Assembly (NCBI GenBank): GCA_016213895.1
Contig: JACQZJ010000028.1
Location: 1,653 to 65,652, forward strand
Direction of reading: 5' to 3'
From: Planctomycetota bacterium
GTDB lineage: Bacteria > Planctomycetota > B15-G4 > JADJEK01
Length of the DNA: 64,000 bases
A program made the position numbers and the translations under genes. The notes beneath the pieces are model-generated. The model searched no databases. It saw nothing but the letters and a program-made list of their open reading frames with translations, and was not told the DNA's origin. This document shows positions 12,812 to 31,931 of this stretch, one piece after another; positions within the stretch are counted from its first letter, which is position 1, and each line of letters starts with the position of its first letter.

Positions 12812-13560
12812 CGAAGTCGAGCAGCTCTTGAAGAACCTGCACCTGTCGCGGATCGTCCAGGTCCTCGACGACGAGTTGGCCGCGGCCCGAGGAAAGGATC
12901 CTGGCCACGAGGAGTTCCTCCTGCGCCTCCTGCGCGCGCAGTGGCACGACCGCCAGGAGAAGGCCCTGGAGTGGCGCATCAAGCAGGCGCGCCTGCCTTT
13001 CCCCTGGACCATCGAGTCGTTTCCCTTCCAGCGCCAGACGGGTGTGAGCCGGCGACAGATCCGGAACTTCGCGACCCTGGAGTTCGTGCCACGGGCCGAG
13101 AACATCGTCTTCGTGGGCAAGACCGGCGTGGGCAAGACCGGGCTGGCGGTCGGGCTGTTGCTCAAGGCGCTGCAGAACGGCTACCGGGCGCTCTTCATCA
13201 AGGCCCAGGAGTTGTTCGACGAAATGTACGCCTCCCTCGCCGATCGCTCGACGCCGCGCTACATCCGTCGCCTCAGCCGCACCGACGCCCTGGCGGTCGA
13301 TGACCTCGGGCTGCGGCCGCTGGTGGGCGACGAGCCGCTGGACCTCTACGAGGTCATCCGCCAGCGCTACGAGCGCGGCTCGATGATCGTGACCTCGAAC
13401 CGGGCGATCGCGGAATGGCCGCCGCTCTTCCTGGACGCCCTGGTGGCGACCGCCGCCATGGACCGCCTGCTGCACGACGCGCAGGTGATCGTGATGGAAG
13501 GCGACTCCCACCGCAACCCGCCGACGACGAAGAGGCGGAAGGGGTGGAAGATGGTGGTGC
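12804..13560 (+). CDS. istB: IS21 helper ATPase IstB (3' end undefined; the frame reads through to 14612 without a stop)
   Basis: Walker A (VGKTGVGKTGLAVGL), Walker B (LAVDDLG) and a C-terminal LLHDAQVIVMEGDSHR motif. The native protein should end about 15 aa later; the long open tail is GC-driven read-through. Confidence 0.7.
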
Positions 13561-13989
13561 GGACGTCCGCCACGCGCGCGGAGCGACGCGGTGAGTCTCG
13601 TGTGCTGGTCACCGCCGTGGAGAGGCCGTGGACAGCTGACGCGGCGTGGAAAACTCCTTGCCTGTTTGAACGGCGGAGTTTCCCACACCGCTACCTGCCC
13701 ACGGCCTCCCCACGGCTCGTCCCCCGAAGAGCCCACGCCGGGCCGTCCGCTGCCGCTCTTTCCGCCCCCGATCCCTGGCCCGTTTCGCAAGAACCATGCC
13801 GCCAGCCGCCGTGGACCAGCCTGGCTGACCCGACCAGCGATTCTGCGCGGCGCCCACACCGCCTTCGTGCACAACGCCGAGCACGCCATCCGAACGTGCT
13901 CGACAAGTGGACTTGCTTGGCCGAACCAAGGGTGGACTTTGCAGGCCGGTCCTTGACAGAAACGGCCCTCTTCATCCGAGTAGACCACA

Positions 13990-16124
13990 GGCAGGACTCG
14001 CCCGGCGAGGACCGCGACGGACGCTTGGCCAGCGTTTCGCGTGAGCAGGATGCGCGCGTCGGGGACGAGACGTCCGTCGCGCCGGAGGACAACGCCGGCG
14101 ACCAGCGGCGGGGGCATCGCGATGTCTCCAAGAGCGATCGCGCCGCTTGCCGGGGCGTCGGCGATGCGCACGGAGCGGTCCGCGGCGCCAGCGGCGGCCG
14201 CCAGCGGGCGCAGCGTCAGCGTTGTGCCAACGGGCCGCTGCCGGTACTCCGCGACCTCGAAGGAGAAACGCCCGCAGTCATCGGTCTGGATCCACGAGCG
14301 CCTCACGCTGGAGTTCGCGTCCGCCTGCAGGTCCGCTTGGAAGATCTCGTGCGGGACGGGCGCGCCGTCTTCATGGACGAGCCGGCCCGACACGCTGACG
14401 AATCGGCCGTCCACGCTCAGATCGATGCGGGCAACGTCACCGGCCGATGTCGGCCCGTTCCCGGTCGTGCTGACGGGCTCCTGGTCCCAGCGGAGTGCTG
14501 CGCGCGCCTCCAGTGTGACTGCGATGCCGACGGGCCAGAAGTCGACTTTGCCGCTCACGGTCTTCCGCGTGAGCATCGTCAGGGCCGGGCTGAGTGCATC
14601 GTCTGCCGATGAGAGGGTGATCACTGCGCCATCGGCCAGCGGTGCCCCCGCGCATCCGGTGGTTTGGACGATGACCCGGCCTGTCGGAGGGCAGATCAGG
14701 GTCACCGGTTCACTGGGCCAGAGGCGCACGTCACCCGGGACCGTCGTCGCCACGGGATGAGCAAGCGGGAAGGCCAGGGCGACGGAGAGGACTGCTTGGG
14801 AATGCGGCGGAGGAGGATCGACCTTGGGCACAAGGCGCGCGAGCCCGCGCGCGTGGTCGGTTCGTGCGATCGCCAGGAATCTGGGTGTCTTCGTCCCGGC
14901 GCTCGGCGTCGTGCAGAGGAGCGCGACTGGAACATCGCCGACAGGCCGCGAGCAGGCGTCGACGACCCTCACGGCCAGGGAGGCCAGCGGCTCCAAAGAG
15001 ACCTCGACAGGGTCTTGTTGGCCGCTGCGAATGAGCGTCTTCCCAAACAGAGACTGACCGACGCGAGCGATGATCGTCGCTCCCATCGGGCCTGGCCGTG
15101 GGACGCAGGCGTTGCCATCCGCACCGGCCACGTCGCGGTACGTGAGCGAGCCGATCGCATCGAGCCAGTCGGCCAGGCTCAGTCGCTCCAGGTCGTGAAG
15201 CGCTTCGGCAAACGCCGCATCGAGGCAGCATCGGCCCTGCTCGATGAACAGAACCTCCGCTCCTGCCACGGGCTCCCCCGTGTCGGCTCTGACCACCCGC
15301 ACGGCCAGAGCAGGGGCGGATGCCGCCGCATCCGTCGGCGCTGATGCCAGTGGCACCCGGCTGGATTCTACCGGGGGGGGATCGGCGGAGACGGACTGCT
15401 TTCGGACAGGCGCTCTCCCAGCCCCTGCGGGCTGCGTGCCGGGAGATGGGATGTCGTCTCGGAACACCCAGATCGAGGATCCGGTCAGGATCGCCGCGAG
15501 CAGCACGGCAAGGGTCAGCAGTTTGCTCGCCACCAGCAGTCCACCCATCATCGATGCGTTCGCCTGCGGAGATCCCGATGCCAGCGGGAGCATCGCGGAA
15601 AGCCAGGCGGAACGGTCCCCGCCGTGTCTGCGGTCCAGTTGCTCTCTGAGCTTCCCGAGCGCGCGCGTCAGCCGGCTGTTCACTGTGGCCGGACTTGTTC
15701 CCTCGCGGCGCGCGATTTCCCTCGGGGCAAGCCCCTCGAAGAAGCGCCCCAGCACGGTGCCCCGGTAGGGCTCCTCGAGAGAGATCACTGCCGCTGCGAG
15801 CAGGCGCTGCTGCTCGAGGCGCTCCACGATCTCTTGCGCGGAGAGTCCGGGCTCAGGTCGCGCACCCTGCCTCTCGCGCCTCAGCCGGCGGGCGCTGCTG
15901 CGATGCTGTGCTGCCGCTACGTTCTTCACGATCCCGGCGAACCAGCCGCGGAAGGATCCTGTCGGCCGCGCGTCCGAAGTCAGAGCCGTGGAGTACGCAT
16001 CCTGGACGACGTCTTCGGCAAGATGAGAGTCCCCGACCAGCCGGCGGGCCAGGGCGATGACCCAGCCGCCATCTGCCGCAAGAACTTCGATTTCCCGGAA
16101 CGTCCGATCGGACATGGCATCCAT
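13990..16124 (-). CDS. ECF sigma factor fused to a TM helix and a large extracytoplasmic beta-sandwich domain (sigma/anti-sigma-like fusion); 3' end uncertain and possibly truncated by the IS21 remnant
   Basis: N-terminal sigma-70 region 2 (DVVQDAYSTALTSDARPTGSFRGWFAGIVKN) and region 4 (LEEPYRGTVLGRFFEGLAPREIARREGTSPATVNSRLTRA). A TM helix (LLTLAVLLAAILTGSSIWVF) follows, then AVRVVRADTGEPV-type repeats. The sequence becomes non-protein-like past roughly residue 700. Confidence 0.6.
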
Positions 16125-17385: not shown

Positions 17386-18456
17386 GTGAGCTGGCCTGCG
17401 CTTGCGAGAAGGGCCGCAAAGGGGATCGCCATCCTCCTGGTTTCCTTCATCCTGGCCGAAATCGCGCTCCGAGCGTACGCGCACTTCCACCCGACGTTCA
17501 TCTTCTTCGATCCCTCGTACAATCGCTTCCGCGGGAATCCGGGGGCGCCCGACTACGATTTCCACCTCAATTCCCTGGGCTTCAAGGACGTGGAGTTCAA
17601 GCAGCAGAAGGAGGCGGGGACCTACCGAATCGTCGCCCTCGGTGACTCGTGCGCCTTCGGGGTCGTGCCATATCAGCACAACTACCTGACTCTGCTGGAA
17701 GAGAATCTGCGCGGGAACGGCCGCCGGGTCGAAGTGCTCAACATGGGCATTATTAGCACCGGACCGGAGCAGTACCTGGCGTTGCTCGCGAACGAGGGGC
17801 TGGGGCTGAAGCCCGACATGGTGCTGGTCTCCTTCTTCACCGGCAATGACTTCACGGACACACTCGCCAAGGAGCCCAGACGCTGGTGGCAGTACTCCGC
17901 TGTCGCGACGCTGGTCAGGTACGTCGTCGACCTGAATCTCAAGTACCAAGGGAGGTTGAGCTACCCGGGCGCTAGCTATGACGACAATGAGCCGACGTTC
18001 ACAGACGTGGCGTACCTGAGGATGGAGGTGGATCGCAGTCTGATCTACCTGAGGCGGAGGCCGTTCAAGAAGGCGTTCGCCGATGCGGTGGCGTATCTGG
18101 TGCGAATCAAGGACCTGTGCGAGGCGCGCGGGGTCGTGCTGACGGTCGTGATCATTCCTGACGAGGTCCAGGTGAGTCAGGGACTTCAGGCGAAGGTGAT
18201 GGAGACTCTCAGGGCGCCTCCCGAGGAGATCGACTTTGCGCTGCCCAACAGGTTCCTGGGTGAGGAGCTGGAGGTGCAGCAGGTGGACTGCGTGGACCTC
18301 TTGAGCGACTTCGTGGTCGCGGCGGTCGAGAGGGCGCTGTACAAGCCGCGGAACAGCCATTGGAACATCGCGGGGAACAGGCTGGCGGCGGAAGTCCTGG
18401 CCAGACACCTGGCCGCGAAGCTGGGCGGACCTGGCGCGCCTGATCCGCCGAGGTGA
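17386..18456 (+). CDS. SGNH/GDSL-family hydrolase with an N-terminal membrane anchor
   Basis: GTG start, TM helix (IAILLVSFILAEIAL), a GDS block (ALGDSCAFG), and GND (FFTGNDF) plus DxxH-like blocks. Confidence 0.7.
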   Translation: MSWPALARRAAKGIAILLVSFILAEIALRAYAHFHPTFIFFDPSYNRFRGNPGAPDYDFHLNSLGFKDVEFKQQKEAGTYRIVALGDSCAFGVVPYQHNYLTLLEENLRGNGRRVEVLNMGIISTGPEQYLALLANEGLGLKPDMVLVSFFTGNDFTDTLAKEPRRWWQYSAVATLVRYVVDLNLKYQGRLSYPGASYDDNEPTFTDVAYLRMEVDRSLIYLRRRPFKKAFADAVAYLVRIKDLCEARGVVLTVVIIPDEVQVSQGLQAKVMETLRAPPEEIDFALPNRFLGEELEVQQVDCVDLLSDFVVAAVERALYKPRNSHWNIAGNRLAAEVLARHLAAKLGGPGAPDPPR

Positions 18457-18531: not shown

Positions 18532-21500
18532 CTACTGCAGCACCACCTGCACGACCTGATCGCTCGCGCCGTGCTGGATGTCGAGCGAGGCAGCGCCGGC
18601 ACCGGAGGTGATCGTCGCGGAGTAGACGCCGGGCTGGAGCGCGCCCAGGTCATAACGCCCCTGCTGGTGGCCGCCGAAGGCCTCGCTCAGGGCTTCGCCG
18701 AAGGTGATGAAGCGGGTCAGCTCCGTTCCCGCGGAGTCGAAGAGGCGGATGCTGGCCGCGCTGACCGGCTGGCCCACCGCGTCCCGCACCTCGACCACGA
18801 GGTTGGCCCCGACGCACAGCTCGATGTCGCGCTCGGTCACCTCGGAGGTGCGCACGTGCACGCCAGCGGCCACGCCAGGAGCGAAGCCCTGCGCTTTGAC
18901 CACGATGGAGTAGACGCCGGAGCGCATGCCGTCCGCGCTGTAGGCGCCTGATTCGCCCGTGAGGATCTCGCCGAAGTGGGCCTCGACCTCGTTGTTCCGC
19001 AGGAAGAAGAGCGTGGCGCCCTGGATCGGCCTGCCGCTCGCGTCGCTGACCTGGCCGTTCAAGGCGCCGCCGGGCTCGAGCAGGAAGTCCACTCCGCTGG
19101 TGAGTTCGCCGTCTTTCACCTCCACGAGCAGGGGCTCGGAGCGGCAGTAGCCGCAGGCGCCGATGCCGAACATGCCTGGCCCGCCCGCGGCCACGCTGTA
19201 GCGTCCGGGCGGCAGGCCGGTGGCGCGGAAGCGGCCGTCCTTGCCGGTGAAGAGGTCCACGACTCTGCGCGACCTGGCCGCGCGCGTCACGGCGTCGACC
19301 GTCGCTCCCTCGTCGAGAGTGTCGATGGACACCCGGGCGCCGGAGATCACTTTGTGGAAGGCCGCGGCGCACACGCCGCCCTCGATCCCGGTGGCGTCGA
19401 GCGCGAAGTCCAGCTCGTACTCTTCGACCTCGGGAATGGTGACGTCAAAGGACTGGCGCGTGGTCGCGGAGAGGGAGGATCCTCCCTGGATCGTCACGGT
19501 CCACTCGCCCGCCGGCATGTTCTTGACCTCGTAGCGTCCCTTGTCGTCGACCGCGGTGAGGCGCAGCCCCTCCTGGATGCCGCCGCCGCCCTCTCCCGGC
19601 GTGAACGAAAGGAACGCGCCGCGGAGCGGCTCGCTTCCTTCGGTGACCATGCCCCGGACCGTGACGCCCGCAGCCTCGCCGCCGGCGAAATCCACCACCT
19701 TTTCTTCGCCCGCCTTCAGCCTGACCGTGCGCGTGGCCAGACCCTCGACCAATGACGACATCATCGTCTCGGAGCCGATGTCGATCGACCCGCCGAGCTT
19801 CTGCACGGTGTAGGAGCCCGCGGCCAGGCCGGTCAGCTGGTAGCGTCCCTCCGCGTCCGTGTTGGTCATGATCGGCATCAGGTTGCCGGCCACGGTCGCC
19901 AGCACGACGTCGCCTCCGCGGGGCGAGCCGTCCGCGGCCGTGCCCGTGCCGCGGATCACTGCGCCGCGCTCGAGCCGGATGACGACGCCCTCCGCCACCT
20001 GCCCGTCGCCCAGCAGGACGCGGGCGGAGCTGCCGGGAGCGTAGCTGCGGGCCGTGACCGAAAGCCGATGGGCGCCCGCCTTCAGGCCGGTGATCGCGAA
20101 GCGGCCGCTCGCATCGGTATGCGTGTCGGAGTAGGGGGCAATCGGGTCCGGCTGGATCAGGGTGTTGCTGGCGCGCGTGGAGACCAGGGCGTTCGGCACC
20201 GGGGAGCCGGTCAGGGCCTCCAGCACCACGCCGCGGATCGCCGCCTCAGGGGGCAGGATGAGGATCACGCCGCGGACCTCTTCGCCGGGCCGAAGCTCGA
20301 TTTCCGGCGTGCTCTCGACGCCGTGCCCATCGGCTCTCACCCGGATGCGCCAGGTCCCCGCCTCGAGCTTGTGGAGAGTGAACGTGCCGTCGGCGCTGGC
20401 CACGTGCTCGAGCGGCGAGGGCGCGAAGCTCTTGGCGTCCAGGATGTCGAAGGGGCGGGTCGCGGCCGCCACGTAGCGCTGGATCGGCTCTGCATCGACG
20501 CGCGACAGGACGATGCCGGAGATGGATCCGTGCCGCTCGAGGACGACGGTGTGGTCGCTCGTGCCCGTGTCGACCCTCTCCAGGTGGCCGGTGGTCATCC
20601 CGTCCGCGCGGGCCGTGACGTCGTAGCTGCCTGGCTCGAGGGCCGGCGACACGAAACACCCGTTGTCGTCAGCGCGCGTCACCGAGCCGCCGAAGTCCTC
20701 GGCGCTCTCCGGCGGGACGCTCTTCGTGACTCCCATGCCCAGGAAGCCGCGGGGCTGGATGAAGCCGACGCTCGCCCCGGGCACGGGATGGTCCTGGTCG
20801 TCCACGACCGTGCCGGCGATGCGTTCGCCGCCCTTGAGCACGATCGGATCGGCGAGTTCCAGACCCCCTGCCGGCAGCTCCACGCGGCGCAGGGTGGCCG
20901 GGGAGAATCCCTCCGCCCGAACGGTCAGGCTGTACCGGTCAGCCGGCAGCCCGCTGATCTCGAAATTGCCCGAGGCGTCGCTTCGCCTCTCCACGGCGTC
21001 GAGGTCGTACGGGTCGATCTTGGCCAGCATGAACGTGGTCTCGGCCTTGCGGGCTGTCACCCGGGCCTCGGCGATTGGCTCTCCCCGCTCGCTCATGATG
21101 CGGCCGCGCAGGGCCGCGCCCTGCCCCGCGACGAGGAGGATCTGGGCGGTCTCACCCGGCGCGAGAGTCAGCCTTTCCGCGGCCGGGAGCAGGCCCTCCG
21201 GCTTGACGCGACAGACCATGGCCGCCTCCGCCGGCACTCCGGTGAACTCGAATCTTCCGTCCTCGCCGCACGCTGTGGTTCCGCTGCGCCAGGTCAGCCC
21301 CTCACGCATGATCTCCATCGCATCCAACGCGGGCTGGAGCATGACGCGTTCCGCGGCCAGGCCCGCTCCGCTTGGCGGGCGGGCCGCGCCGCGCACCACC
21401 CCGGCCGGCACGACGAGGACGGTCACCAGGCCCGGACCGCCCGCGGCGTCGACCCGAACGAGGTCGCGCGTGGCCGCGAACGGAGACAGTGCCCGGAGGA

Positions 21501-21999
21501 ATCCCCTGAGCCTGGGCCCGCGCAGCTCGAACGAACCGTCGGCGGCGATGGAGCCGCGGGCGAGCGGCACGGCGTCGGCCCGTCCTTGGCGCGGAAACTC
21601 GCTGTGGGCGAGCGCGGGGAGACGGACGAAGGGCGGCGGTTCGGAGAGGAGCACGACCTCACCATCGGCCACGGGCGAGCGGTCCAGCGCCCAGAGCACG
21701 AAACCCTCGAGAACGTCCTCGCGGACCGCGGCCTCGCTCCGGTCCGGCAGCGGCGGGGCTTCGATGTCCGGCAAGGTGACGTTCGGCGAATCCGCTCCGG
21801 CGAGAACTCCCTGGCCGGTCTCGAGCACGACGGGCGTGTCCTGATTACCCCGGTCAGCAAGCACGAGGAGGCAGACGACGGCGAGCGCCGCAAGCAGCGC
21901 GGCGGCGACAAGGAGAGTGCGTGTTCTCTGGGCCATGGCTGCGCTGGCATCCTCGAGTTTGGGCTGTTCACTCGGTATGAGAGGCGCCGCAACGGTCAT
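18532..21999 (-). CDS. Large membrane-anchored protein made of carboxypeptidase regulatory-like (CarbopepD_reg) beta-sandwich repeats
   Basis: N-terminal anchor (LLVAAALLAALAVVCLLVLA). At least 8 repeats of the type GRYEVKNMPAGEWTV, GRFRATGLPPGRYSV and GAYSADGMRSGVYSIVVKAQGFAP. Confidence 0.75.
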   Translation of the reverse strand: MTVAAPLIPSEQPKLEDASAAMAQRTRTLLVAAALLAALAVVCLLVLADRGNQDTPVVLETGQGVLAGADSPNVTLPDIEAPPLPDRSEAAVREDVLEGFVLWALDRSPVADGEVVLLSEPPPFVRLPALAHSEFPRQGRADAVPLARGSIAADGSFELRGPRLRGFLRALSPFAATRDLVRVDAAGGPGLVTVLVVPAGVVRGAARPPSGAGLAAERVMLQPALDAMEIMREGLTWRSGTTACGEDGRFEFTGVPAEAAMVCRVKPEGLLPAAERLTLAPGETAQILLVAGQGAALRGRIMSERGEPIAEARVTARKAETTFMLAKIDPYDLDAVERRSDASGNFEISGLPADRYSLTVRAEGFSPATLRRVELPAGGLELADPIVLKGGERIAGTVVDDQDHPVPGASVGFIQPRGFLGMGVTKSVPPESAEDFGGSVTRADDNGCFVSPALEPGSYDVTARADGMTTGHLERVDTGTSDHTVVLERHGSISGIVLSRVDAEPIQRYVAAATRPFDILDAKSFAPSPLEHVASADGTFTLHKLEAGTWRIRVRADGHGVESTPEIELRPGEEVRGVILILPPEAAIRGVVLEALTGSPVPNALVSTRASNTLIQPDPIAPYSDTHTDASGRFAITGLKAGAHRLSVTARSYAPGSSARVLLGDGQVAEGVVIRLERGAVIRGTGTAADGSPRGGDVVLATVAGNLMPIMTNTDAEGRYQLTGLAAGSYTVQKLGGSIDIGSETMMSSLVEGLATRTVRLKAGEEKVVDFAGGEAAGVTVRGMVTEGSEPLRGAFLSFTPGEGGGGIQEGLRLTAVDDKGRYEVKNMPAGEWTVTIQGGSSLSATTRQSFDVTIPEVEEYELDFALDATGIEGGVCAAAFHKVISGARVSIDTLDEGATVDAVTRAARSRRVVDLFTGKDGRFRATGLPPGRYSVAAGGPGMFGIGACGYCRSEPLLVEVKDGELTSGVDFLLEPGGALNGQVSDASGRPIQGATLFFLRNNEVEAHFGEILTGESGAYSADGMRSGVYSIVVKAQGFAPGVAAGVHVRTSEVTERDIELCVGANLVVEVRDAVGQPVSAASIRLFDSAGTELTRFITFGEALSEAFGGHQQGRYDLGALQPGVYSATITSGAGAASLDIQHGASDQVVQVVLQ

Positions 22000-22140: not shown

Positions 22141-23574
22141 TCAGGCGTCGAGATCGACGTCGGCGATGCCGAGAACGGGCTGGAACGGAGCGATGGGGAC
22201 CGTGACCATGTCGCCGACGATGATCAGCCCTTCGACGCGCAGCGTGTAGTCCCCGTTCAACGTGAGGGGCACCTTGACGAGGTGCACCGCGACGAGGCTC
22301 GTGACCTTGTAAGCGGTGATGTTGACCACGGCTCCAGTCGGATCGAGGAGCGTGACCGTGATGTCCGTGAGCAGGAGCCCGCCCTTGGGGAACACGTTGG
22401 CGTTGACGATCGCTCCTGCGAGAGCGCCGATCTTGAACTCGACCAGGCTCTGCCCGGCCTTGGGCTCGGCCTTGGTGAAGGTGCGCGGCTTGGCCCGGTC
22501 CGGCAGCTTGCGATCGGTGAGCACCTTGTAGTCGCCCGTGCCCTTCTTGCCCTCGAAGCGCAGTGCAAAGAAGCCCGAGTCTTCCAGGTCGAACTGCTTG
22601 TTGTGGGTCTCGCCCCCCTTCAGCGTCCAGGACTTCACCACGGCGTCGAACTCGTCCACGATGCACACGCGCATCTTCTCGATGCCGTCGCCCGGCTTGA
22701 TCTTCAGCAGGAGCGTCATGCCCTTGAGGCCGTCGAACCAGGCCGCGTCGCTGTCGTCCTCGGCGTCGATCGAGCCGAGCAGCGTGTCCCCGACGGCGAA
22801 CGACTTCTTGGTGACCGCCAGGGTGACGTTGAAGTTGAAGATATTGCCGTTGCCGCCGCCGTTCATCTGGTGGGTGATTGTCACGAGTCCCGTGTAGTTG
22901 CCGTTCGCCAGGCCGATGGGGTCGATCTGGATCTCCACGGTCTGCGGGCTGCCGGACGGCGGGATCGAGCCAGTCGCGGGAACGGCCGTGATCCTCGAGG
23001 CAAGCGTGCCGCTGATGGCCGTGATCCAGTCGAGCTTGACCGTCTGGTTGCCGCTATTCGAGAGCGTGAGCACCACGGGGTCCGGAGGAATGCCGCCGGC
23101 ATCGTACGCGAAGGCAATGGGATTCGGACCGGTGACGGACAGAGTCCCCTCCGGGACGGTGACCGCTAGATTGACGTTGAAGCTGATGACGTTGCCGTTG
23201 CCGCCGCCGTTCAACTTGTGGACTACCCGCACCAGTCCCGTGTAGTTGCCGACCGCCAGGCCGACCGGATCGACGTAGACCTGTATGGTCTGCGGGCTGC
23301 CGAAGGCCGGGATGGAGCCGGTCGAGGGAACCGCCGAGAGCCTCGAGGCGAGCGTGCCGCTGATGGCCGTGATCCAGTCGAGCTTGACCGTCTGGTCGCC
23401 GGTGTTCGAGGCCGTGAGCACCGCCGGTCCCGGCAAGGGGTCGCCGTTTGCCCACGCGAAGTTGATCGGATTCGTGCCCGTGACGGTCAGGGTCCCCTCG
23501 GCTGCGACGAGGGTTCCGCTGAAGAGGCTGAGGACGAGAAGGGCTGTGAAGGGGCGCATCGTGACTCCTCGCAC
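22141..23574 (-). CDS. Secreted protein with two near-identical ~130-aa tandem repeats
   Basis: Signal peptide (MRPFTALLVLSLFSGTLVAAEG). Repeat 1 and repeat 2 share the string KLDWITAISGTLASR...GNYTGLV...NGGGNGN. GC content is lower than in the surrounding DNA. Confidence 0.65.
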   Translation of the reverse strand: MRGVTMRPFTALLVLSLFSGTLVAAEGTLTVTGTNPINFAWANGDPLPGPAVLTASNTGDQTVKLDWITAISGTLASRLSAVPSTGSIPAFGSPQTIQVYVDPVGLAVGNYTGLVRVVHKLNGGGNGNVISFNVNLAVTVPEGTLSVTGPNPIAFAYDAGGIPPDPVVLTLSNSGNQTVKLDWITAISGTLASRITAVPATGSIPPSGSPQTVEIQIDPIGLANGNYTGLVTITHQMNGGGNGNIFNFNVTLAVTKKSFAVGDTLLGSIDAEDDSDAAWFDGLKGMTLLLKIKPGDGIEKMRVCIVDEFDAVVKSWTLKGGETHNKQFDLEDSGFFALRFEGKKGTGDYKVLTDRKLPDRAKPRTFTKAEPKAGQSLVEFKIGALAGAIVNANVFPKGGLLLTDITVTLLDPTGAVVNITAYKVTSLVAVHLVKVPLTLNGDYTLRVEGLIIVGDMVTVPIAPFQPVLGIADVDLDA

Positions 23575-23766: not shown

Positions 23767-24364
23767 ATGCGCCGGGCTGCGACGTGGTTCGTGGAGGCGG
23801 TTCTTCTTCTTGCCGCCGCCGCGTGCGGCAGCCGGCCGGAGCCAGAGGCCGGGATGGCGAGTAGCGCAGCGGGCGTCTCCAGGACGGTCAGGATCGACGG
23901 CGCCGAGATCCACTGCCTGGGTCGACCTGCCTGGTTTCGGCGCGTCCGGACGGGTGTCGCTCGAGCCGGACGCCTTTCTCGCCGCCCTCCTCGACGCGCT
24001 CGAACTACGCCGGCCGGTGCTCGTGTCGCCGTCCCTGAGCGGCCGCTTCAGCCTGCCGTTCGCCGCCCGCAGCCCGGGCCAGCTCGCGGGCTTCGTCCCA
24101 ATCGCGCCGGCCGGCGTGGAGCACTGCCGCGAGGAGCTGGCTGGCGCGCACGTCGAGACCCTGGTGATCTGGGGAAGGAACGACCGCACGTTTCCCGTCG
24201 CCGGGGCGAGCGACCTGGCCGGGCTCATGCCGTCCGCGAGCATCGCGGTGATCGAGGACGCGGGCCATGCCTGCTACCTGGATCAGTCCGAGCGCTTCCA
24301 CGAGCTGCTGCTCGCGTTTCTCGCGCGCGCCGCCCCTACCGGTACGACTCCAGCTCGGCGTTGA
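23767..24364 (+). pseudogene. Alpha/beta-hydrolase lipoprotein, disrupted by an internal deletion and frameshift
   Basis: The N-terminus (lipobox LLLAAAACGS, then RIDGAEIHCLG) is in one frame. The remainder (DLPGFGASG...VIWGRNDRTF...IEDAGHACYLD) is in another frame. About 45 aa including the HG oxyanion-hole block are missing. Confidence 0.5.
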
Positions 24365-25364
24365 TCCTCATGCCGGCGCGCTCCGGCAGCGTGTCCCACA
24401 GCTCGTCCTGGATCTCCGCGAGGCGCGGCGATCCGGCGTGGTAGCGCAAGGACGCGGCCTGGCCGGGCACGGCGGTCAAGTGCCAGGCGAGGTGGTCGAC
24501 GCCGAGAGAGCGCGCGAGGCGCCGCGCTTCCTCCATCCCCTCGCCCGAGTCGTTCCACTCGAACAGGATGTAGCGCCAGATCAGCCACGGGCGCTCGCGA
24601 CCCTGCTCCTTCTTCATGGCCGCCAGGCGCCGCATGGCCTCGAGGACCCGCTCCAGGCGGCCTCCGCGCCGGTATTTCTCGTAGGTCTCCTGCCGCGCTC
24701 CGTCGACCGAGAAGATCAGGCAGTCGATGCCGCTGTTGAGGACCGCCTGGCGGCGCTCTTCGGTGTGGAAGAAGTGGCCGTTCGTGCTGGAGAGGATCAG
24801 GCAGCCAGGGTTCTTCTCCCGGCAGCAGCGCACCATCTCGTTCGCGGAGCGGTGCATGTAGTTCTCGCCGCCGAGGTGGAACTCCATGTACCCGAGGTCC
24901 GGGGAGAGCGCGTCGATGATCCTGGCGTAGGTGGCGAAGGGCAGGGAGAGGGAGGAGCGGCTGCCCTCGATTCCCGCGCGGTTGCAGCCGGGGCAGGAGA
25001 GGTTGCAGGCGGCGTGCGACTCGATGAAGAGGATGCGCGGCCGCGGCACGCCCGACTCGAAGTCCGGCGGCGGCGGCGGCCCGGCCGTGCGGTTGGGGCA
25101 GCCCCGGCAGATCGGCACCTGGTCGATGTCCGTGGCGATCGCGCGGCGCAGGGCGCGATAGGCCGGCCCGTTCCAGACCTCGTCGAAGCCCTGCCGGCCG
25201 AGGTCGCCGAGCGGGTTCCTCTTCTCCGCGTCCACGCAGGCGCAGACTGCGGTCCCGTCCGAGAGCACGGCGGTCTGGCGCCACGGCCGCGTGCAGTAGG
25301 GCCGGCTGGAGTCGGCCCGCAGCCACGTGGCGATCTCCGGGACGTGTTGTTCCTCGCGGTTCAT
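24336..25364 (-). CDS. Radical SAM enzyme with an N-terminal SPASM-like Cys-rich domain (circularly permuted arrangement)
   Basis: The rSAM core motif CNLSCPGC lies at residues ~113-120 of the protein counted from the MNREEQ start. It is preceded by a SPASM-like block (YCTRPW...DGTAVCAC...GDLGRQGFDEVWNG...ICRGCP). The gene may start 34 codons earlier, at 25466. Confidence 0.75.
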   Translation of the reverse strand: MNREEQHVPEIATWLRADSSRPYCTRPWRQTAVLSDGTAVCACVDAEKRNPLGDLGRQGFDEVWNGPAYRALRRAIATDIDQVPICRGCPNRTAGPPPPPDFESGVPRPRILFIESHAACNLSCPGCNRAGIEGSRSSLSLPFATYARIIDALSPDLGYMEFHLGGENYMHRSANEMVRCCREKNPGCLILSSTNGHFFHTEERRQAVLNSGIDCLIFSVDGARQETYEKYRRGGRLERVLEAMRRLAAMKKEQGRERPWLIWRYILFEWNDSGEGMEEARRLARSLGVDHLAWHLTAVPGQAASLRYHAGSPRLAEIQDELWDTLPERAGMRINAELESYR

Positions 25365-25497
25365 GGGCGGCCTGCCTGGCGCAGGGCGGCGGCGTTTGGC
25401 TCTCGGGGCGCTCTTGCACCATAGCCCGGCCTGGCCTACAACCTCGTCTTCATTCCGGCTCTGCAAGCGAGGAGGCGGCGGCGTGGTTCAGGGCGGG

Positions 25498-27123
25498 ATG
25501 CGGGCGCTCCTCGTGGCCGCCGTCCTGGCGCTGTCCCTGGCGCTGAACTGCGCGGGCATCGGCTTTGGCCAGCCCTGCCACTACGACCAGTCGGTGGACG
25601 CCATCCACCCGGCGCTCTCCCTGGACGCGCTCGAGCACCTCTGCGGCGGGAGCCGGATCACGGAGCTGAAGTACCCGCGCACGCACTTCCTGGCCCTCGG
25701 CCTGGTGCAGCGCGCCTACCTGCTGCTGCGCCACGGCCCGGAAGAGGCCGCGCGGCGGCAGGGCGAGCTGATGGCCGCGTTCGCGGCCGCGCCCGCGCTC
25801 TCCGGCGTGGAGGCGCGCGCCTCCTTCCGTCCCTTCGCCGGCACCATCGGCGAGCTGATCGTGGTGGGGCGCGTGCTCTCGGCTCTCTGCGGCTGCGGCG
25901 CCGTGCTCGCCCTGTTCCTGCTGGCGCGCGGCCTGTTCGGTTTCGTCGCGGGAGCGATCGCCGCCTTTCTCGCGGCGGTGAGCCATCCGCTGGTCTTCTA
26001 TTCGCACACCCTGAACGTCGAGACTCCCTACCTGTGCTGCGCGCTCTTCGCGCTCGCCAGCGCCGTGCGCGCGATCACGACGGGCGCGGCGCGCTGGATC
26101 TTCCTGGCCGTGCTGCTCGCGGCCCTCTCCGGTGCCATCAAGGACCAGGCGTTCGGCCTGTTCATCCTGGCGGCGCCGCTCTTCCTCTGGCTGCTGCTGC
26201 GGCCCGGTTCGTTGCGCCCCGGCGCGGCGCGTCCCTTCCCCCTGCTCGCCGTGTGTCTCGCCGTGCTCGCCGCGGCCGCCTTCTACCTCGCGCTGCTCGG
26301 CCTGCCCGGGGACGTCGAGGGATTCAAGCGGCACTTCGCGCACATCTTCGGCGCGGGCGTGGCGCCCTTTCGCGAGGCCTCGAACACGCTTCTCGGCCAC
26401 TTCGAGCTGCTGCGCTTGACCTTCCTGCACCTGCGAGACAGCCTGGGCGCGCCGCTCCTTCTCGCGGCCGCCGCTGGCGCGGCGTGGATGGCCGTGCGCG
26501 AAGGGCGCAAGGCCTTGGTGATCCTGCTGCCGATTGCCTCCTACTACCTCTCCTTCATCGCGCTCATCGGCTACGTGTACCTGCGCTTCACCCTGCCGAT
26601 CCTGCTGCTCGCGCTCGTCGCCGCCGCCTACCTGTGCACGGCGCTGCTGCGCGCGCCCTACGTGCGCGTCGCGGCCGCGGCCGGCCTGCTTCTCTTGCTC
26701 GGCAACCGGATGGTCCTGGCCGTGGATCTCGACCGCATGCTGCTCGCCGAGCCCAGGACCGAGGCGAGCGCTTTTCTGGAGGAAGTCCTGCCGGAGGGCG
26801 CGCGCGTCGCGGCCGCGATCGATCTGCCCATGCACAACATCGACTTCCCGGCGCGCGCGCAGGTCGAGTTCATCGACCTGCGGCCGCAAGCCGAGCGCGC
26901 GCTGCCCTGGGAGCCCGACTACGTCGTCGTGTCTCTCTTCCCGCCCACGCGCGGCATCGCCATGCCGGCGCCCGAGCCGCCCGAGATCCACGCGGAAGCC
27001 ACGCTCCTCGGCCTGCGCTTCGAGCTGGAGGAGTCGTTCACGCCTGCCATGAACCACCCGATCCAGCTCGGCGCGGCCTTCCAGCCCGTGATACTGGTCT
27101 ATCGCCGCGCCACGGGACCGTAG
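25498..27123 (+). CDS. GT-C fold membrane glycosyltransferase (ArnT / PMT, GT39/GT83-like)
   Basis: GGAGG RBS 23 bp upstream of the ATG. About 12 predicted TM helices with a periplasmic C-terminal domain, an arrangement typical of undecaprenyl/dolichyl-phosphate-sugar-dependent transferases. Confidence 0.7.
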   Translation: MRALLVAAVLALSLALNCAGIGFGQPCHYDQSVDAIHPALSLDALEHLCGGSRITELKYPRTHFLALGLVQRAYLLLRHGPEEAARRQGELMAAFAAAPALSGVEARASFRPFAGTIGELIVVGRVLSALCGCGAVLALFLLARGLFGFVAGAIAAFLAAVSHPLVFYSHTLNVETPYLCCALFALASAVRAITTGAARWIFLAVLLAALSGAIKDQAFGLFILAAPLFLWLLLRPGSLRPGAARPFPLLAVCLAVLAAAAFYLALLGLPGDVEGFKRHFAHIFGAGVAPFREASNTLLGHFELLRLTFLHLRDSLGAPLLLAAAAGAAWMAVREGRKALVILLPIASYYLSFIALIGYVYLRFTLPILLLALVAAAYLCTALLRAPYVRVAAAAGLLLLLGNRMVLAVDLDRMLLAEPRTEASAFLEEVLPEGARVAAAIDLPMHNIDFPARAQVEFIDLRPQAERALPWEPDYVVVSLFPPTRGIAMPAPEPPEIHAEATLLGLRFELEESFTPAMNHPIQLGAAFQPVILVYRRATGP

Positions 27124-27137
27124 TTTCGGACTCCCGG

Positions 27138-27983
27138 CTACTCGTCCTTCTTCCCCTCTTCGTCGCCGCCGAGCAGACCGCCGAGCCGGTCCTTCACGCC
27201 CTCGACCGCGCCCTTCACCTCCTCGCCAACGGCCCCGATCCGGCCGCCCACGTTCTTGAGGAACTTCGCGGCGTTCCTCGCCACCTCGCCGTCGAGGATG
27301 CCCTGCAGGTCAGGCGGCGCCAGGCCGCTCTTGGTCACGGCCGCCAGGATCGTGCCCAGGATCTCCTCGAGAAGCTGCGGCAGGGTGACGTCCCGCGAGG
27401 CGCTCGCCTCCTCGCCCGAGCCGCCGATGTCCGTCAGCTCGATCGTGGGCAGGCTGATGGTCTGTTCGGTCTTCAGGAGGAGCGACTGGGCGAGGCGCAC
27501 CTTGGGCGAGGTGATGGTCACCCGGCCGATCCTGAGCTTCTTGGAGGACGCCCCCTCTTCGTCCGCCGCGGGCTTTGCTTCTGCCTCGCCGCCGCCGGTG
27601 CGGGACTTCAGGTGGTCCATGAGCGCCCCGAAGTTGCTCCCGCCCGTGGAGACCTCGAGCGTGATCAGGGGCTCCGCGATGTCGATGTACTCGATCTCGA
27701 TCGTGTCGCTCAGGAGCGAGCTGACGGCGGTCTTGACGTCGATCTTGCCGACCTCGAGCGCGCTGTCCGCCTTGAAGCCCTCGGGGTTGCGGATGGCGAG
27801 CTTCTCCATCTGCACCTGCCCGCGGAGCAGCGACAGGGAGGCGGAGGACAGCTCCGTCTGGGAGCCGAGCGCCCAGGTGCCGCCTTTCACCACTCCCTTC
27901 TGCAGGATGCCTCCGGCCAGCCAGGAGACCGCGAAGGGGAGAAGGAGGATCACGATGACGACGACGATGATCAGCTTCTTCAT
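27138..27983 (-). CDS. Membrane-anchored periplasmic protein, AsmA-like/unknown
   Basis: The N-terminal anchor (MKKLIIVVVIVILLLPFAV) is encoded with noticeably lower GC. The rest is Gly/Glu-rich and acidic. Family assignment is weak. Confidence 0.55.
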   Translation of the reverse strand: MKKLIIVVVIVILLLPFAVSWLAGGILQKGVVKGGTWALGSQTELSSASLSLLRGQVQMEKLAIRNPEGFKADSALEVGKIDVKTAVSSLLSDTIEIEYIDIAEPLITLEVSTGGSNFGALMDHLKSRTGGGEAEAKPAADEEGASSKKLRIGRVTITSPKVRLAQSLLLKTEQTISLPTIELTDIGGSGEEASASRDVTLPQLLEEILGTILAAVTKSGLAPPDLQGILDGEVARNAAKFLKNVGGRIGAVGEEVKGAVEGVKDRLGGLLGGDEEGKKDE

Positions 27984-28041: not shown

Positions 28042-29643
28042 TCACCGCGAAGCGCAGATCGCGAGGCGCGGATCGCCCCCTGGTCCGAGCACGCGGTGCG
28101 ATCCCGATCGCAGCCGCCGGCTGCCGAACCAGATCAGGGGCTCGGTCTCGCGGGCCAGCTCGTCCCAGGACTCCGCTTCCTCCACGGGCGCGAGGAAGTA
28201 GACCCCTCGTTGGTCGGAGCGCGCCGCCCGGAGCACGTCCTCTGGCCGGCCGACCAGCTTGAACGCGCGCACGTCGTAGTCCTGGAGCGGCCGGCAGTCC
28301 ATCTCCAGCTCCTCCGGCACGAAGACCGTGGAGCCGGGCGCGGCGTGCGCTCGGATCCAGTCGCTGGCGAGGTTGCGGGAGTCGGGAGACAGGTCATAGG
28401 CGCGCGCCAGCGCCGGCCAGGACAGGCCGAAGGCGCAGGCGCAGAGCAGGAGGATGGTGCAGCAGGCCGCCGCCCGGCGCGCGGGGGCGCGCGCCGGCCA
28501 ACGCCGCTCGAGCAGGCCGGCCGCGAAGCGCGCGACGAACACGAGTCCGACGGCGGCGAACAGGGCGCAGAAGGGGAACATGCTCACGACGTTGCGGATG
28601 AAGTGCACCTTCTGAGCGCTCATGTAGAGCCCGAGGACCAGCGGATAGGACAGGAGGATCGCCGCCCTTCGCCAGTCGACGAAGAAGGAGCGCGCGATGC
28701 CGATCAGCGCCAGGACGAGCACGACCGGGCCGAAGTTGGCCCGCAGGCTGTCCAGGTAGAACATGACCTGCGCCAGGCCCGACTCGGAAGTGAAGTCGGC
28801 GTGGCCGCGCGCGTAGTGGCGGATCTCCAGTCCGACGTCGTTCAGGAAGGCGGACAAGTCGAAGAGGCAGGGCGTGGTGGCGAGAAAGACCACGGCCGTC
28901 GTGCCGAGGAAGAGCGCGCCGCGCAGCATGAAGCGCCGCTCGCGCAGCACGAGGTTGAGGAGGAACGGCACGACGATCGGCCAGAGGTTGTACTTGCTGC
29001 CGATGGTCAGCGCGCACAGCACGCCGGGAACGAGGCAGCGCTCGGCGGGGCTTTCCGAGTCCGTGCGCCGGAACAGGTAGAGAACCGCGAGCAGGGCGAA
29101 GAAGCACCCGAACATGTCCACGTTCAGGTACTCCCAGGAGTAACCGAGGTACGTGAACGAGGCCGAGAGCAGGAGCGGCGCGAGCACGAGGACCAGCGCC
29201 GAGCCCGTCAGGCGCCAGCCGATGATCGCGGAAAAGACCATGGCCAGGACCGAGAGCAGCGCGAACAGCAGGCGCGCCGGCAGGACGATGCTCGAGTGCT
29301 CGTAGTACGGGAAGGTGAGGCAGCCGATCTGGTCGACGGTCTCCAGCTCCTGCCGCGACGAGGCGAAGAGGAAGCCCGCGACCAGACTCGCCGCCGTGAC
29401 GTAGATCGGCGGCGAGGGGTAGCGGTACCAGTGGGGCAGGTAGTCGCCGCTCGTGATGATCTGCTGCCCCAGGCCCGTGAGGTGGCGCTCGTCCTCGTGC
29501 AGGGGATAGGGGAGCGAGCCGCGGATCAGGTCGACGCGCACCCAGAACGCGGCAACGATGATCAAGAGGAGCGCCAGCACGGCGCAGCGCAACTCCACGC
29601 GGCGCGCGCCGCCTTCGGTCTCCATGCCCTCGGCCCGCAACAT
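28042..29643 (-). CDS. GT-C fold membrane glycosyltransferase (PMT_2 / ArnT-like), second copy
   Basis: Polytopic N-terminal region followed by a soluble C-terminal domain. It is divergent from, but architecturally like, the first copy. A DE-like motif lies near the first loop (HEDERH). Confidence 0.7.
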   Translation of the reverse strand: MLRAEGMETEGGARRVELRCAVLALLLIIVAAFWVRVDLIRGSLPYPLHEDERHLTGLGQQIITSGDYLPHWYRYPSPPIYVTAASLVAGFLFASSRQELETVDQIGCLTFPYYEHSSIVLPARLLFALLSVLAMVFSAIIGWRLTGSALVLVLAPLLLSASFTYLGYSWEYLNVDMFGCFFALLAVLYLFRRTDSESPAERCLVPGVLCALTIGSKYNLWPIVVPFLLNLVLRERRFMLRGALFLGTTAVVFLATTPCLFDLSAFLNDVGLEIRHYARGHADFTSESGLAQVMFYLDSLRANFGPVVLVLALIGIARSFFVDWRRAAILLSYPLVLGLYMSAQKVHFIRNVVSMFPFCALFAAVGLVFVARFAAGLLERRWPARAPARRAAACCTILLLCACAFGLSWPALARAYDLSPDSRNLASDWIRAHAAPGSTVFVPEELEMDCRPLQDYDVRAFKLVGRPEDVLRAARSDQRGVYFLAPVEEAESWDELARETEPLIWFGSRRLRSGSHRVLGPGGDPRLAICASR

Positions 29644-29755: not shown

Positions 29756-30937
29756 TCAGCCTCCCTTGTCGCGCCAGGGGGCATACCCTTCTATGACGAA
29801 GGGCGACAGGTCCTCGAACCCTCCGACCTCATCGTAGAAGGGCGTGACGATCGCTTCCTTGATCGCCTCGACCTCGGCGCGCGCTGGATCGTACGTGATG
29901 CGCACCGGCGCGTGGCCCGGACCCGGCCAGGTCTCGACCTTGAGGTAGCCTTCTACCTCGAAGATGTCCTCGCGGAACAGGAAGCTGGCCAGGCGGCTGG
30001 ACGAGCCGCGGCACGTCACGCCCTCGATGCGCAGGTCGAGCGTCTCGGTCACAGCCGGGGGCTTACCGCGCGCCACGAAGAAGGAGGGCAGCGGGAACAG
30101 GTAGGCGGCGCTCACCACGGACGCCGTGATCGCGAGCAGCACGGCGACCGCGGCCGCCTGCGGCCAGGCGCGGTGCGTGCGCCCCGGCGGGCCCCAGGTG
30201 AGCGTGCTCTTGCGGCGCGTGGGGCAGGAGGAGACGCAGGACAGGCAGCTGGTGCAGCGCGCGGCGGTCACCTCCTGCTTGCGCGAGACAGGGATGTTCA
30301 TCGGGCAGACGGTCTCGCAGTGGCCGCAGTCCGAGCAGGTCTCGAGATCGCGCCGCACGCGCGCCAGCCCGAAGCGCGACAGGGGATTGAAGAGCGCCGC
30401 CAGCGGGCACAGCCAGCGGCAGAAGGGGACGGTGAGGAAGAGCGCGCCGGCGACGATGGCGCCGGAGACGACGTAGGCCCAGAAGGTGATGTCCTCGCCG
30501 TGCCGGCTGAGCAGGGCGTAGCACGGGTCCGCGGTGCGGAACAGCAGCTCGCCGGCCTTCCACGTCACCCAGAGGATGAGCGCGAGCACGCCGTACTTCA
30601 AGAGCGCCAGGACCGATTCCAGGGCCTGCGGCACGCGCGCCGGCTTGATGCCGGCGCGCCGAGCCAGCTTGCCGAGCCACTCGGTGATCGTGCCGATCGG
30701 GCAGATGTAGCTGCAGAAGGCGCGCCGCAAGAGCAGGGCCATGAGCAGCACGCCGCCGAGCGCGAAGAAGTTGGAGACCGCCAGCGAGCAGGGCATGTTC
30801 CCTTCGTTGGCGTAGGTGTAGATCGCCTCCGCGCCGCCGAAGGGGCACCAGCGCTCGGCGTTGCCGCCCACGACGAACACGCCGATCAACGTCAGGGCCA
30901 GGAAGGCGGCCTGGATGGCTCGCCGCGTCCTCTGCAT
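29756..30937 (-). CDS. Membrane polyferredoxin (NapH / MauN / CcoG-like, two 4Fe-4S motifs) with a C-terminal HMA-like domain
   Basis: TM helices flank a CxxCxxCxxxCP motif (CSDCGHCETVCP) and a second cluster motif (CTSCLSCVSSCP). The C-terminal region (RIEGVTCRGSSSRLASF...) resembles a heavy-metal-associated fold with a single Cys. The start was re-assigned to the in-frame MQRTRR at 30937. Confidence 0.75.
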   Translation of the reverse strand: MQRTRRAIQAAFLALTLIGVFVVGGNAERWCPFGGAEAIYTYANEGNMPCSLAVSNFFALGGVLLMALLLRRAFCSYICPIGTITEWLGKLARRAGIKPARVPQALESVLALLKYGVLALILWVTWKAGELLFRTADPCYALLSRHGEDITFWAYVVSGAIVAGALFLTVPFCRWLCPLAALFNPLSRFGLARVRRDLETCSDCGHCETVCPMNIPVSRKQEVTAARCTSCLSCVSSCPTRRKSTLTWGPPGRTHRAWPQAAAVAVLLAITASVVSAAYLFPLPSFFVARGKPPAVTETLDLRIEGVTCRGSSSRLASFLFREDIFEVEGYLKVETWPGPGHAPVRITYDPARAEVEAIKEAIVTPFYDEVGGFEDLSPFVIEGYAPWRDKGG

Positions 30938-31031
30938 GGCACGCGCCTCGTTCGCTGCTGTAGGGGCCGGAAACAGGAAAGGGCGGTTCGACCCGCCCCT
31001 TCCCGCGCTGAAACGCCGCTGGCTGCTGCGC

Positions 31032-31931
31032 CTAGCCGTCGGCGTCCTTCTTGTCGTCGGCGCAGCCGTCGTCCTTTTCGCTCGAGCAGCCGCCCTTGCT
31101 GGGGCAGGAGCCGCAGTCCGCTCCGCTGCTGCAGGACGACTCCGCGACCTTGGACTCGGTGGCAAGGACCGTCTCGAAGTTGGCGTTCGCCGGCAGGGCC
31201 TTGAACTCCGGGAGGTTCACGACGAACTCCCGGAAAGCGGTGATGCCGCGCGGGGAAGTGGACTCGAAGGCCGAGGTCAGGCGGACCATGGCGTCGTCCA
31301 CCTTGCCGCACAGCACCTCGAGGCGGGCCACGTCGCACAGAAGGCGCGGGCTCGCGGGCTCGGGCAGGACGACCTGCTCGAGGATGGCGCCGGCCTCGTC
31401 GAGCTTCTTCTGCCGGCCGAGACCGATGCCCAGGAGGACCTTGGCCTGAGGCGTGAGGTCGGCCTGCGGCTGGCTGGCGAGCAGCTCCACCACCTCGGCG
31501 TCCTCTTCCATGTTCAGCAGGGCGTCCGCCAGGAGGGTCGCGCTGCCGACCGACTGCTTCTTCTCATGCATCTGGCGGGCGAGGGCCAGCAGGTCAGCGT
31601 AGAGGCGGTTGCTGTAGTAGAAGTTCTTGAGCGTCGCCGCCGTCTTGGTCCACTGCTCGGGATCCTGCTCCGCGGCGAGGCCCTCGCGCAGCGACACGAC
31701 CTTGCGCAGGACCATGTACTTCTGGCGGTACTCGGTCTTCTCCTCGTCGAGCTGGCTGGCAGCGGCGTAGGCGTCGAGCGCGCCGCTGAAATCCCCCCGG
31801 TGCAGGAGATCGGTCCCCTTGGCGAACTCGAGGGCGGCCTTGTCCGCGTCCGGTCCATCGTAAGCCGCCGCCCCGCCAGCGGCGAGCAGGCCGAACATCA
31901 CGCTGATCAACATCATCCGTGGGAGCTTCAT
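31032..31931 (-). CDS. Secreted TPR-like helical protein with a Cys-rich acidic C-terminal tail
   Basis: Signal peptide (MKLPRMMLISVMFGLLAAGGAAA). Helical repeats. Tail sequence SSCSSGADCGSCPSKGGCSSEKDDGCADDKKDADG. Confidence 0.65.
   Translation of the reverse strand: MKLPRMMLISVMFGLLAAGGAAAYDGPDADKAALEFAKGTDLLHRGDFSGALDAYAAASQLDEEKTEYRQKYMVLRKVVSLREGLAAEQDPEQWTKTAATLKNFYYSNRLYADLLALARQMHEKKQSVGSATLLADALLNMEEDAEVVELLASQPQADLTPQAKVLLGIGLGRQKKLDEAGAILEQVVLPEPASPRLLCDVARLEVLCGKVDDAMVRLTSAFESTSPRGITAFREFVVNLPEFKALPANANFETVLATESKVAESSCSSGADCGSCPSKGGCSSEKDDGCADDKKDADG

Follow-up and report, generated by a model that had tools for sequence, protein, structure and literature searches.

Can a radical S-adenosylmethionine (SAM) enzyme carry its auxiliary-cluster domain ahead of its catalytic core, and what would such an enzyme act on? 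The question is raised by a gene on the reverse strand (24336..25364) of a 64,000-nucleotide stretch of contig JACQZJ010000028.1 from a Planctomycetota bacterium; that whole stretch is referred to here as the window. We know of no structurally characterized SPASM or twitch enzyme in which the auxiliary-cluster domain does not follow the core. An earlier note, made from the nucleotide sequence alone, had called the gene product a circularly permuted radical SAM enzyme with a SPASM-like Cys cluster at its N-terminus. With high confidence, the protein is predicted to carry a BtrN-type twitch domain ahead of its CX3CX2C core in a single chain, and the confidence extends to the assignment of the clusters. 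The best overall explanation, which we consider reasonably probable, is that of a two-cluster, twitch-first radical SAM enzyme that acts on a cell-envelope sugar or glycolipid precursor and not on a peptide.

Domain order and identity

The gene and its parts are listed below. Residue numbers refer to the 342-residue product unless they are given as residues of the longer open reading frame (ORF).

24336..25364, reverse strand: radical SAM coding sequence, 342 amino acids, ATG start at 25364 (MNREEQ), stop codon 24336-24338
25365..25466, reverse strand: non-coding 5' extension of the ORF, 34 codons from a TTG start
25080..25307, reverse strand: predicted N-terminal twitch (half-SPASM) auxiliary [4Fe-4S] domain, residues about 20-95
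25293-25295, 25242-25244, 25236-25238, 25107-25109 and 25098-25100, reverse strand: codons of the twitch-domain residues C24, C41, C43, C86 and C89, respectively
24984..25007, reverse strand: CX3CX2C motif C120-N-L-S-C124-P-G-C127 (CNLSCPGC), residues 120-127 of 342 (ORF residues 154-161)
24465..25034, reverse strand: radical SAM (beta/alpha)6 core, residues about 111-300, with GGEN at 165-168 and SSTNG at 192-196
24339..24464, reverse strand: conserved C-terminal tail, residues 301-342 (S..RY..GSP.L.EI..ELWDTLP), with helices at 313-329 in the AlphaFold2 model

The SPASM profile PF13186 aligns over its full length (positions 1-67 of 67) to ORF residues 58-124 (E 2.5e-12; 47.4 bits against a cutoff of 21.5). 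Radical_SAM, PF04055, comes second, at ORF residues 152-284 (E 2.5e-10; 41.2 bits against a cutoff of 29.5). The presence of both in one protein, in this order, bears out the claim that a SPASM-like Cys block lies N-terminal to the core. The protein belongs to the radical SAM superfamily by its CX3CX2C motif, by a PF04055 score above threshold and by a partial TIM barrel as its core, in which GGE and other SAM-binding motifs occur. The CNLSCPGC motif itself had been recognized in the earlier note, which placed it at residues ~113-120, slightly off its actual position.

The N-terminal domain is homologous to SPASM and twitch domains, but the SPASM label fits it only in part. Its Cys residues follow the pattern C-x16-C-x-C-x42-C-x2-C, and the next Cys after C89 is C120 of the core motif. 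The CX2CX5CX3C motif, which would mark a second auxiliary cluster, is absent from the protein, whose N-terminal domain has five conserved Cys only; because that motif is missing, the domain is a one-cluster twitch (4-5 Cys) and falls short of a full SPASM domain. Across 32 family members, C24, C41, C86, C89 and the core triad C120/C124/C127 never vary, and the conservation of C43 is about 94%; in 24 sequences drawn from Planctomycetota and Acidobacteriota all five twitch-domain Cys are invariant.

Among the sequences of the PDB, a profile made from the N-terminal domain alone finds one significant match: it aligns over 79 residues with BtrN 164-242, which is the twitch domain at the C-terminal side of that enzyme (E 8e-10). 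BtrN, the 2-deoxy-scyllo-inosamine dehydrogenase of the butirosin pathway (PDB 4M7S/4M7T), is the founding twitch-domain radical SAM enzyme. In the alignment, C24 corresponds to C169 of BtrN and C86/C89 to C232/C235, while C187 of BtrN falls between C41 and C43. The latter two (25236-25244, reverse strand) thus flank the position of a BtrN ligand, and the domain offers five conserved Cys where four would suffice for the cluster. A profile of the whole family also finds BtrN as its best match (E 2e-17), in two stretches whose order is swapped: family residues 15-98 pair with BtrN 161-245, and the family core pairs with the N-terminal core of BtrN.

A structural model computed with AlphaFold2 from the family alignment (mean predicted local distance difference test score, pLDDT, 90.2; predicted template-modeling score, pTM, 0.88) shows the hallmark of the twitch fold, a beta-hairpin (30-33/38-40) between the first and second Cys, followed by helices at 60-64 and 67-82 and then by the CxxC; the core strands begin at residue 111. 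The succession of Cys, beta-hairpin, Cys, helix and CxxC, with Cys for one [4Fe-4S] cluster, is the twitch topology. What departs from the definition of a twitch domain is its location: a twitch lies C-terminal to the core, whereas this domain, at about 20-95, precedes the CX3CX2C motif at 120-127.

That the Cys block might be a zinc ribbon or some other metal-binding motif unrelated to SPASM and twitch domains, or might belong to a separate upstream gene, had been offered in the earlier note as the way in which its reading could fail. CxxC pairs are common in zinc ribbons, and a TraR zinc finger does match here, weakly and non-significantly (E 0.28). Against these stand the PF13186 score, more than twice its cutoff, and the BtrN match with its aligned ligand Cys, and also the spacing C-x12-G-x3-C...CxxC, which together with the predicted beta-hairpin fits the twitch topology. 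A separate gene is contradicted by a single continuous coding sequence of uniform GC content at third codon positions (GC3), and by the occurrence of both domains in one protein in every homologue. The zinc-ribbon and separate-gene readings are effectively refuted by the PF13186 and BtrN matches and the continuous coding sequence, and we regard them as scarcely credible.

The start of the coding sequence

The 376-amino-acid, TTG-initiated ORF at 24336..25466 (reverse strand) that the earlier note took for the gene is indeed in the program-made list of ORFs, but only its 24336..25364 part is coding. GC3 is 0.96 from the ATG at 25364 to the stop codon and drops to 0.74 in the 34 codons upstream. 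The homologues all start near the MNREEQ Met, 10-20 residues ahead of a conserved IATW motif, and none has a counterpart of the 34-codon extension. The identical protein (P0001, 100%) has been deposited at NCBI with 342 amino acids, starting MNREEQ, under the name 'SPASM domain-containing protein [Planctomycetes bacterium]'. The GC3 drop, the homologue starts and the NCBI product together fix the start at the MNREEQ Met, and the extension to 25466 is not coding. This start had been listed as potentially fatal to a one-protein reading; it is the true one, and yet the Cys block lies downstream of it, in the same protein.

Distribution and phylogeny of the family

An NCBI protein search returns ~75 full-length homologues at 49-70% identity. 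In a scan of one genome per species (the GTDB species representatives), 425 genomes encode a relative, mainly in Planctomycetota and Acidobacteriota. Among the best 80 of the 425, the Planctomycetota proteins are 47-91% identical to the window protein and the Acidobacteriota proteins, mostly from Vicinamibacterales, 35-42%; the latter bear a C-terminal extension of roughly 135 amino acids. An exhaustive profile search of 1.84 billion representative sequences retrieves 2596 proteins with E <= 1e-30; of the first 150, most match the profile from ~20 to 320 in a single stretch, in proteins 310-985 amino acids long.

Both domain orders occur among the retrieved proteins, with the twitch domain before CX3CX2C in 120 and after it in 70. 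The closest non-permuted sequence relatives of the window protein, P0080 and P0088, are of the canonical, TIGR04317-like SPASM type. In a tree built from the core only, one bipartition parts 117 proteins with the N-terminal arrangement from 63 with the C-terminal one, and there are no exceptions; the tree is a neighbor-joining one, calculated from a biased sample and without support values. It suggests that the swapped order defines one large clade and probably arose once. Proteins with tandem modules offer a glimpse of how this could have come about: P0234 and P0244 are core-twitch-core-twitch, and P0122 and P0215 contain both orders. Such proteins are plausible duplication intermediates on the way to the permuted order. 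'Circularly permuted' therefore stands as a description of sequence order, which is swapped relative to P0080, P0088 and BtrN, and it is at this level that the comparison of sequences establishes it.

The novelty that the earlier note implied was overstated: the family is large, the exact protein is in the public databases, and the architecture has a curated NCBIfam model. That model, NF033640 ('N_Twi_rSAM', twitch domain-containing radical SAM protein), places its domains in the order seen in the window protein and is longer (398 positions, of which the first roughly 70 are twitch). Its positions 3-72 align to residues 22-92 of the window protein; in the canonical P0080 and P0088, which are next-closest by core sequence, positions 3-74 align to residues 263-359, after the core. 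Four paralogues and relatives (L027, L030, P0203 and P0151) are colinear with NF033640 over positions 2-285. Membership in NF033640 was considered for the window protein and its close relatives and is rejected: the window protein scores 35.7 bits and eleven other matching relatives 29-57, and none reaches the cutoff of 170. The N-terminal-twitch layout is widespread and already cataloged, neither rare nor unrecorded, and the window protein is best filed as a separate, uncurated and uncharacterized family inside it.

The searchable literature holds no paper that characterizes any member of the family or any N-terminal-twitch enzyme. Nor is the architecture or the family described in the literature on N-terminal twitch or SPASM domains, on circular permutation of SPASM, or on radical SAM enzymes in connection with lipid A, lpxB, O-antigen or polysaccharide. 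The RadicalSAM.org paper (PMC9477430) does mention that additional conserved Cys precede the barrel in some members of Megacluster-1-1 (SPASM/twitch).

Relation to known radical SAM enzymes

Domains that bind an auxiliary [4Fe-4S] cluster ahead of a radical SAM core have a precedent in the methylthiotransferases MiaB and RimO and in lipoyl synthase (PMC9477430). The N-terminal domains of these enzymes (UPF0004; CX4CX5C) are unrelated to twitch and SPASM domains in sequence and fold, and their clusters are sulfur donors.

The canonical SPASM enzymes, such as the anaerobic sulfatase-maturing enzyme (anSME), PqqE, MftC and the sactisynthases, share with the window protein a PF13186 match and a CX3CX2C core of the same subgroup. 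Their SPASM domains are C-terminal, with 7-8 Cys, those of CX2CX5CX3C among them, that serve two auxiliary clusters, whereas the window protein has the Cys of one cluster, at its N-terminus. They also have no counterpart of its C-terminal tail (301-342), which matches nothing in Pfam or NCBIfam. BtrN is nearer, and is nevertheless not an ortholog: identity is about 22%, the order is swapped (the twitch domain is at 164-242 in BtrN and at about 20-95 here), and the core of the window family is larger. The family further differs from BtrN in the five invariant N-domain Cys that flank the C187 position and in the conserved 40-residue tail. There are no aminoglycoside genes within the 64-kb window.

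BlsE, the cytosylglucuronate decarboxylase (PDB 7VOB), is the top Foldseek match to the model (E 3.7e-10, 22% identity) and the second-best match by sequence. In both BlsE and DesII only the core aligns, and their auxiliary or C-terminal domains come after it; what they share with the window enzyme, as it is interpreted here, is the substrate class, since both perform radical chemistry on the sugar ring of nucleotide or nucleoside sugars. The window protein scores 37 bits with TIGR04466, against a cutoff of 400, and lies below the cutoffs of NF033640, BlsE, anSME and all RiPP-maturase models (RiPP, a peptide made by the ribosome and modified after translation). It belongs to none of the characterized families.

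Proposed mechanism

A sequence of events that would account for these features is readily drawn up. The [4Fe-4S] cluster at C120/C124/C127 would cleave SAM to yield a 5'-deoxyadenosyl radical, and residues about 20-95 would hold one auxiliary [4Fe-4S] cluster by way of C24, C41 and/or C43, C86 and C89. The radical would then take a hydrogen atom from a sugar carbon, and the auxiliary cluster, if it is fully Cys-ligated, could accept or relay an electron, as has been proposed for the dehydrogenase BtrN. More speculatively, the fifth invariant Cys might serve as a hydrogen-atom donor, as in epimerase-type chemistry. The substrate would be a nucleotide-, polyprenyl- or lipid-linked envelope sugar, and the product would be used by neighboring glycosyltransferases, in the window a GT-C (glycosyltransferase fold C) enzyme.

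A more ambitious version of this scheme takes the clade to be a single-origin circular permutant of the twitch fold that carries out an undescribed radical reaction on a sugar of lipopolysaccharide (LPS), lipid A or a surface glycan, and that feeds GT-C or Lpx enzymes. Anaerobic dehydrogenation of the BtrN kind, or epimerization by way of the fifth Cys, are examples of reactions that might be meant. In this specific form the proposal is doubtful.

Neighborhoods and fusions in relatives

The case for envelope glycan or LPS-sugar chemistry is drawn from recurrent neighbors of the genes and from fusions to glycosyltransferase (GT4) and capsule-synthesis domains; the best characterized relatives (BtrN, BlsE, DesII, MoaA and viperin) act on sugars or cyclitols. 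The guess of the earlier note that the substrate is a glycan or lipid and not a RiPP fits the same neighborhoods and fusions. The fusions are the stronger evidence of the two. P0154 is a GT4 glycosyltransferase fused to a radical SAM module that is 36% identical to the window protein over 300 residues, C-terminal tail included. P0163 (L090 2158-4983) combines a methyltransferase, a Capsule_synth domain and the radical SAM module, and a GT4-TylF fusion gene lies upstream of it. In four more relatives (P0156, P0164, P0182 and P0195) the fusion partner consists of DUF4214 repeats.

Among the neighbors, GT-C glycosyltransferase genes recur. The window, its near-identical counterpart in another metagenome-assembled genome (MAG; locus L007) and locus L001 have one in the same, divergent position; in L003 and L024/L025 one lies directly downstream, overlapping the stop codon. 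The link to GT-C recurs in about 4 of about 20 independent lineages, and is not a fixed operon. It is possible that the divergent GT-C enzyme is a functional partner. A glycoside hydrolase-like protein of 768 amino acids is encoded near the homologues in L001, L012 and L016, ManC adjoins the homologue in L015, and in L088 a Wzm/Wzt ABC exporter, GT2 and GT4 glycosyltransferases, an acetyltransferase and PIG-L are found downstream.

Genes of lipid A synthesis also appear. In three Planctomycetota genomes (L027-L029) lpxB lies 3-15 bp upstream of a second radical SAM paralogue, with a Gfo/Idh/MocA oxidoreductase, lpxC-fabZ, lpxD, skp and bamA alongside. In L027 (8826-18270) and L029 (1111-7659) this is a lipid A cluster with an lpxC-fabZ fusion (438 amino acids) in which lpxB and then the paralogue are convergent with bamA, skp, lpxD, lpxC/fabZ and the Gfo/Idh/MocA gene; the product of the last is possibly GnnA-like. 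Some 22 Vicinamibacterales loci have lpxC immediately downstream, in convergent orientation. The block in that order is fixed (L032-L086, e.g., L058 9983-11344): an ECF (extracytoplasmic function) sigma factor, a STAS anti-sigma antagonist, the radical SAM gene and convergent lpxC.

Several facts weigh against a glycan role. Across the family as a whole, no gene turns up as a constant partner. In Vicinamibacterales the shared gene order (sigma factor, STAS, lysA, obgE, lpxC) is one of housekeeping genes; it may reflect common ancestry, and so amount to roughly one event. Of the Planctomycetota loci, about half are flanked by unrelated genes: major facilitator superfamily (MFS) and Nramp transporters, histidine kinases, GuaA, ZnuA, an O-methyltransferase and a beta-lactamase. 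The recurrence of glycan genes is a raw count of loci and lineages. When the neighbors of 83 loci are clustered, the well-populated clusters are the Vicinamibacterales housekeeping genes only, and the cross-phylum partners are limited to lpxC, and lpxB in a few loci. One alternative is that the protein is a housekeeping enzyme of small-molecule metabolism, modifying a cofactor, lipid or isoprenoid and having nothing to do with glycans, with the glycan neighbors a coincidence of operon-poor genomes. We consider the housekeeping explanation unlikely. A role in the synthesis of an envelope glycan, be it LPS, lipid A or another surface glycan, is plausible, if short of probable.

A peptide or protein substrate is the remaining alternative: a RiPP maturase, or an anSME-like maturase for planctomycete sulfatases, whose substrate is encoded elsewhere in the genome. 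The core does score best with NCBIfam 'maturase' models (TIGR04311, 82.6 bits; TIGR04317, 76.3 bits), although these scores are far under the curated cutoffs of 380-400. In L088 a sulfatase gene is found 5 kb away from the homologue; the anSME model TIGR03942 (cutoff 349 bits) is nevertheless absent among the best 25 of the 27 matches at E <= 1, and the protein has a single auxiliary-cluster motif. The window, moreover, already holds two aerobic sulfatase maturases of the FGE (formylglycine-generating enzyme) type, which makes a role for an anaerobic one less necessary. The earlier note saw no precursor-peptide ORF next to the gene, and this extends to relatives: no conserved short ORF occurs within 700 bp in 29 Planctomycetota loci, where only Arg-rich antisense artifacts of high-GC DNA turn up. 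Since planctomycete genomes scatter linked genes, little weight attaches to there being no peptide gene alongside; but a Pfam search of the window protein also finds no RiPP recognition element (RRE/PqqD) or other peptide-binding domain, and the fusion partners are glycosyltransferase and capsule-synthesis domains, not peptidases or transporters. A peptide or protein maturase is thus improbable, and the two-cluster enzyme acting on an envelope sugar or glycolipid precursor is retained as the preferred explanation.

The locus in the window

The following features of the window lie around the radical SAM gene.

25498-27123, forward strand: PMT_2 (GT-C, ArnT-like) glycosyltransferase (PF13231, E 2.8e-11), divergent, 133-bp spacer
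27138-27983, reverse strand: AsmA/DUF748-like protein
28042-29643, reverse strand: second PMT_2-like GT-C protein (25.4 bits, just under cutoff)
29756-31165, reverse strand: Fer4_5 membrane polyferredoxin
23767-24364, forward strand: alpha/beta-hydrolase pseudogene, convergent, overlapping the 3' end of the radical SAM coding sequence by 29 bp; a neighbor, not part of the system
22141-23574, reverse strand: secreted protein
18532-21999, reverse strand: secreted CarboxypepD_reg repeat protein
17386-18456, forward strand: AlgX/SGNH-like protein
12317-14612, forward strand: IS21-type remnants, a Mu-transposase C-terminal fragment (164 amino acids) followed by an IstB-like ATPase inside a 602-amino-acid ORF
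6609-8120 and 8398-9429, reverse strand: two FGE-sulfatase (SUMF1-type, oxygen-dependent) genes, one with a weak N-terminal papain-like match
40800-42332, forward strand: B12-binding radical SAM gene, about 15 kb from the radical SAM gene under study, followed at 42377-44797 (forward strand) by a spermine-synthase-like protein of 806 amino acids

The divergent GT-C gene and the hydrolase pseudogene at the 3' end had both been noticed earlier, and both are as described. The hydrolase has a Pfam match in its C-terminal part only. In comparison with the intact ortholog in L007, the 91%-identical MAG locus, it has lost about 41 codons, including the HG oxyanion region, and its frame shifts at about 23920 (IHCLG / VDLPGFG). 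To judge from this comparison it is a genuine pseudogene, an assembly error being the other possibility.

In a BLAST comparison with all of the loci, the GT-C, AsmA-like, hydrolase and 477-amino-acid genes are shared with L007 only, plus L001 in the case of GT-C; the gene order of the window is, on that account, not a conserved cassette. The AsmA-like, second PMT_2-like and polyferredoxin genes, too, are common only to the window and L007. The membrane polyferredoxin (29756-31165) could in principle donate electrons to a radical SAM enzyme. In L005 (1-741) and L088 (1-486), too, a B12-binding radical SAM gene is found less than 10 kb from the homologue, which may be coincidence.

Significance

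This is not a new kind of system: its architecture is curated in NCBIfam, and the protein has been deposited under a generic name. What the twitch-first clade does provide is a natural opportunity to see whether an auxiliary cluster keeps its position relative to the active site when the connectivity of the chain is changed. Radical SAM chemistry is, as far as we are aware, barely documented in the biosynthesis of envelope glycans and LPS, and the Planctomycetota and Acidobacteriota that harbor the family have cell envelopes that are poorly understood. For these organisms, the fusions and neighborhoods offer a testable lead toward an uncharacterized clade of radical SAM enzymes that may act in envelope glycan or LPS biosynthesis.

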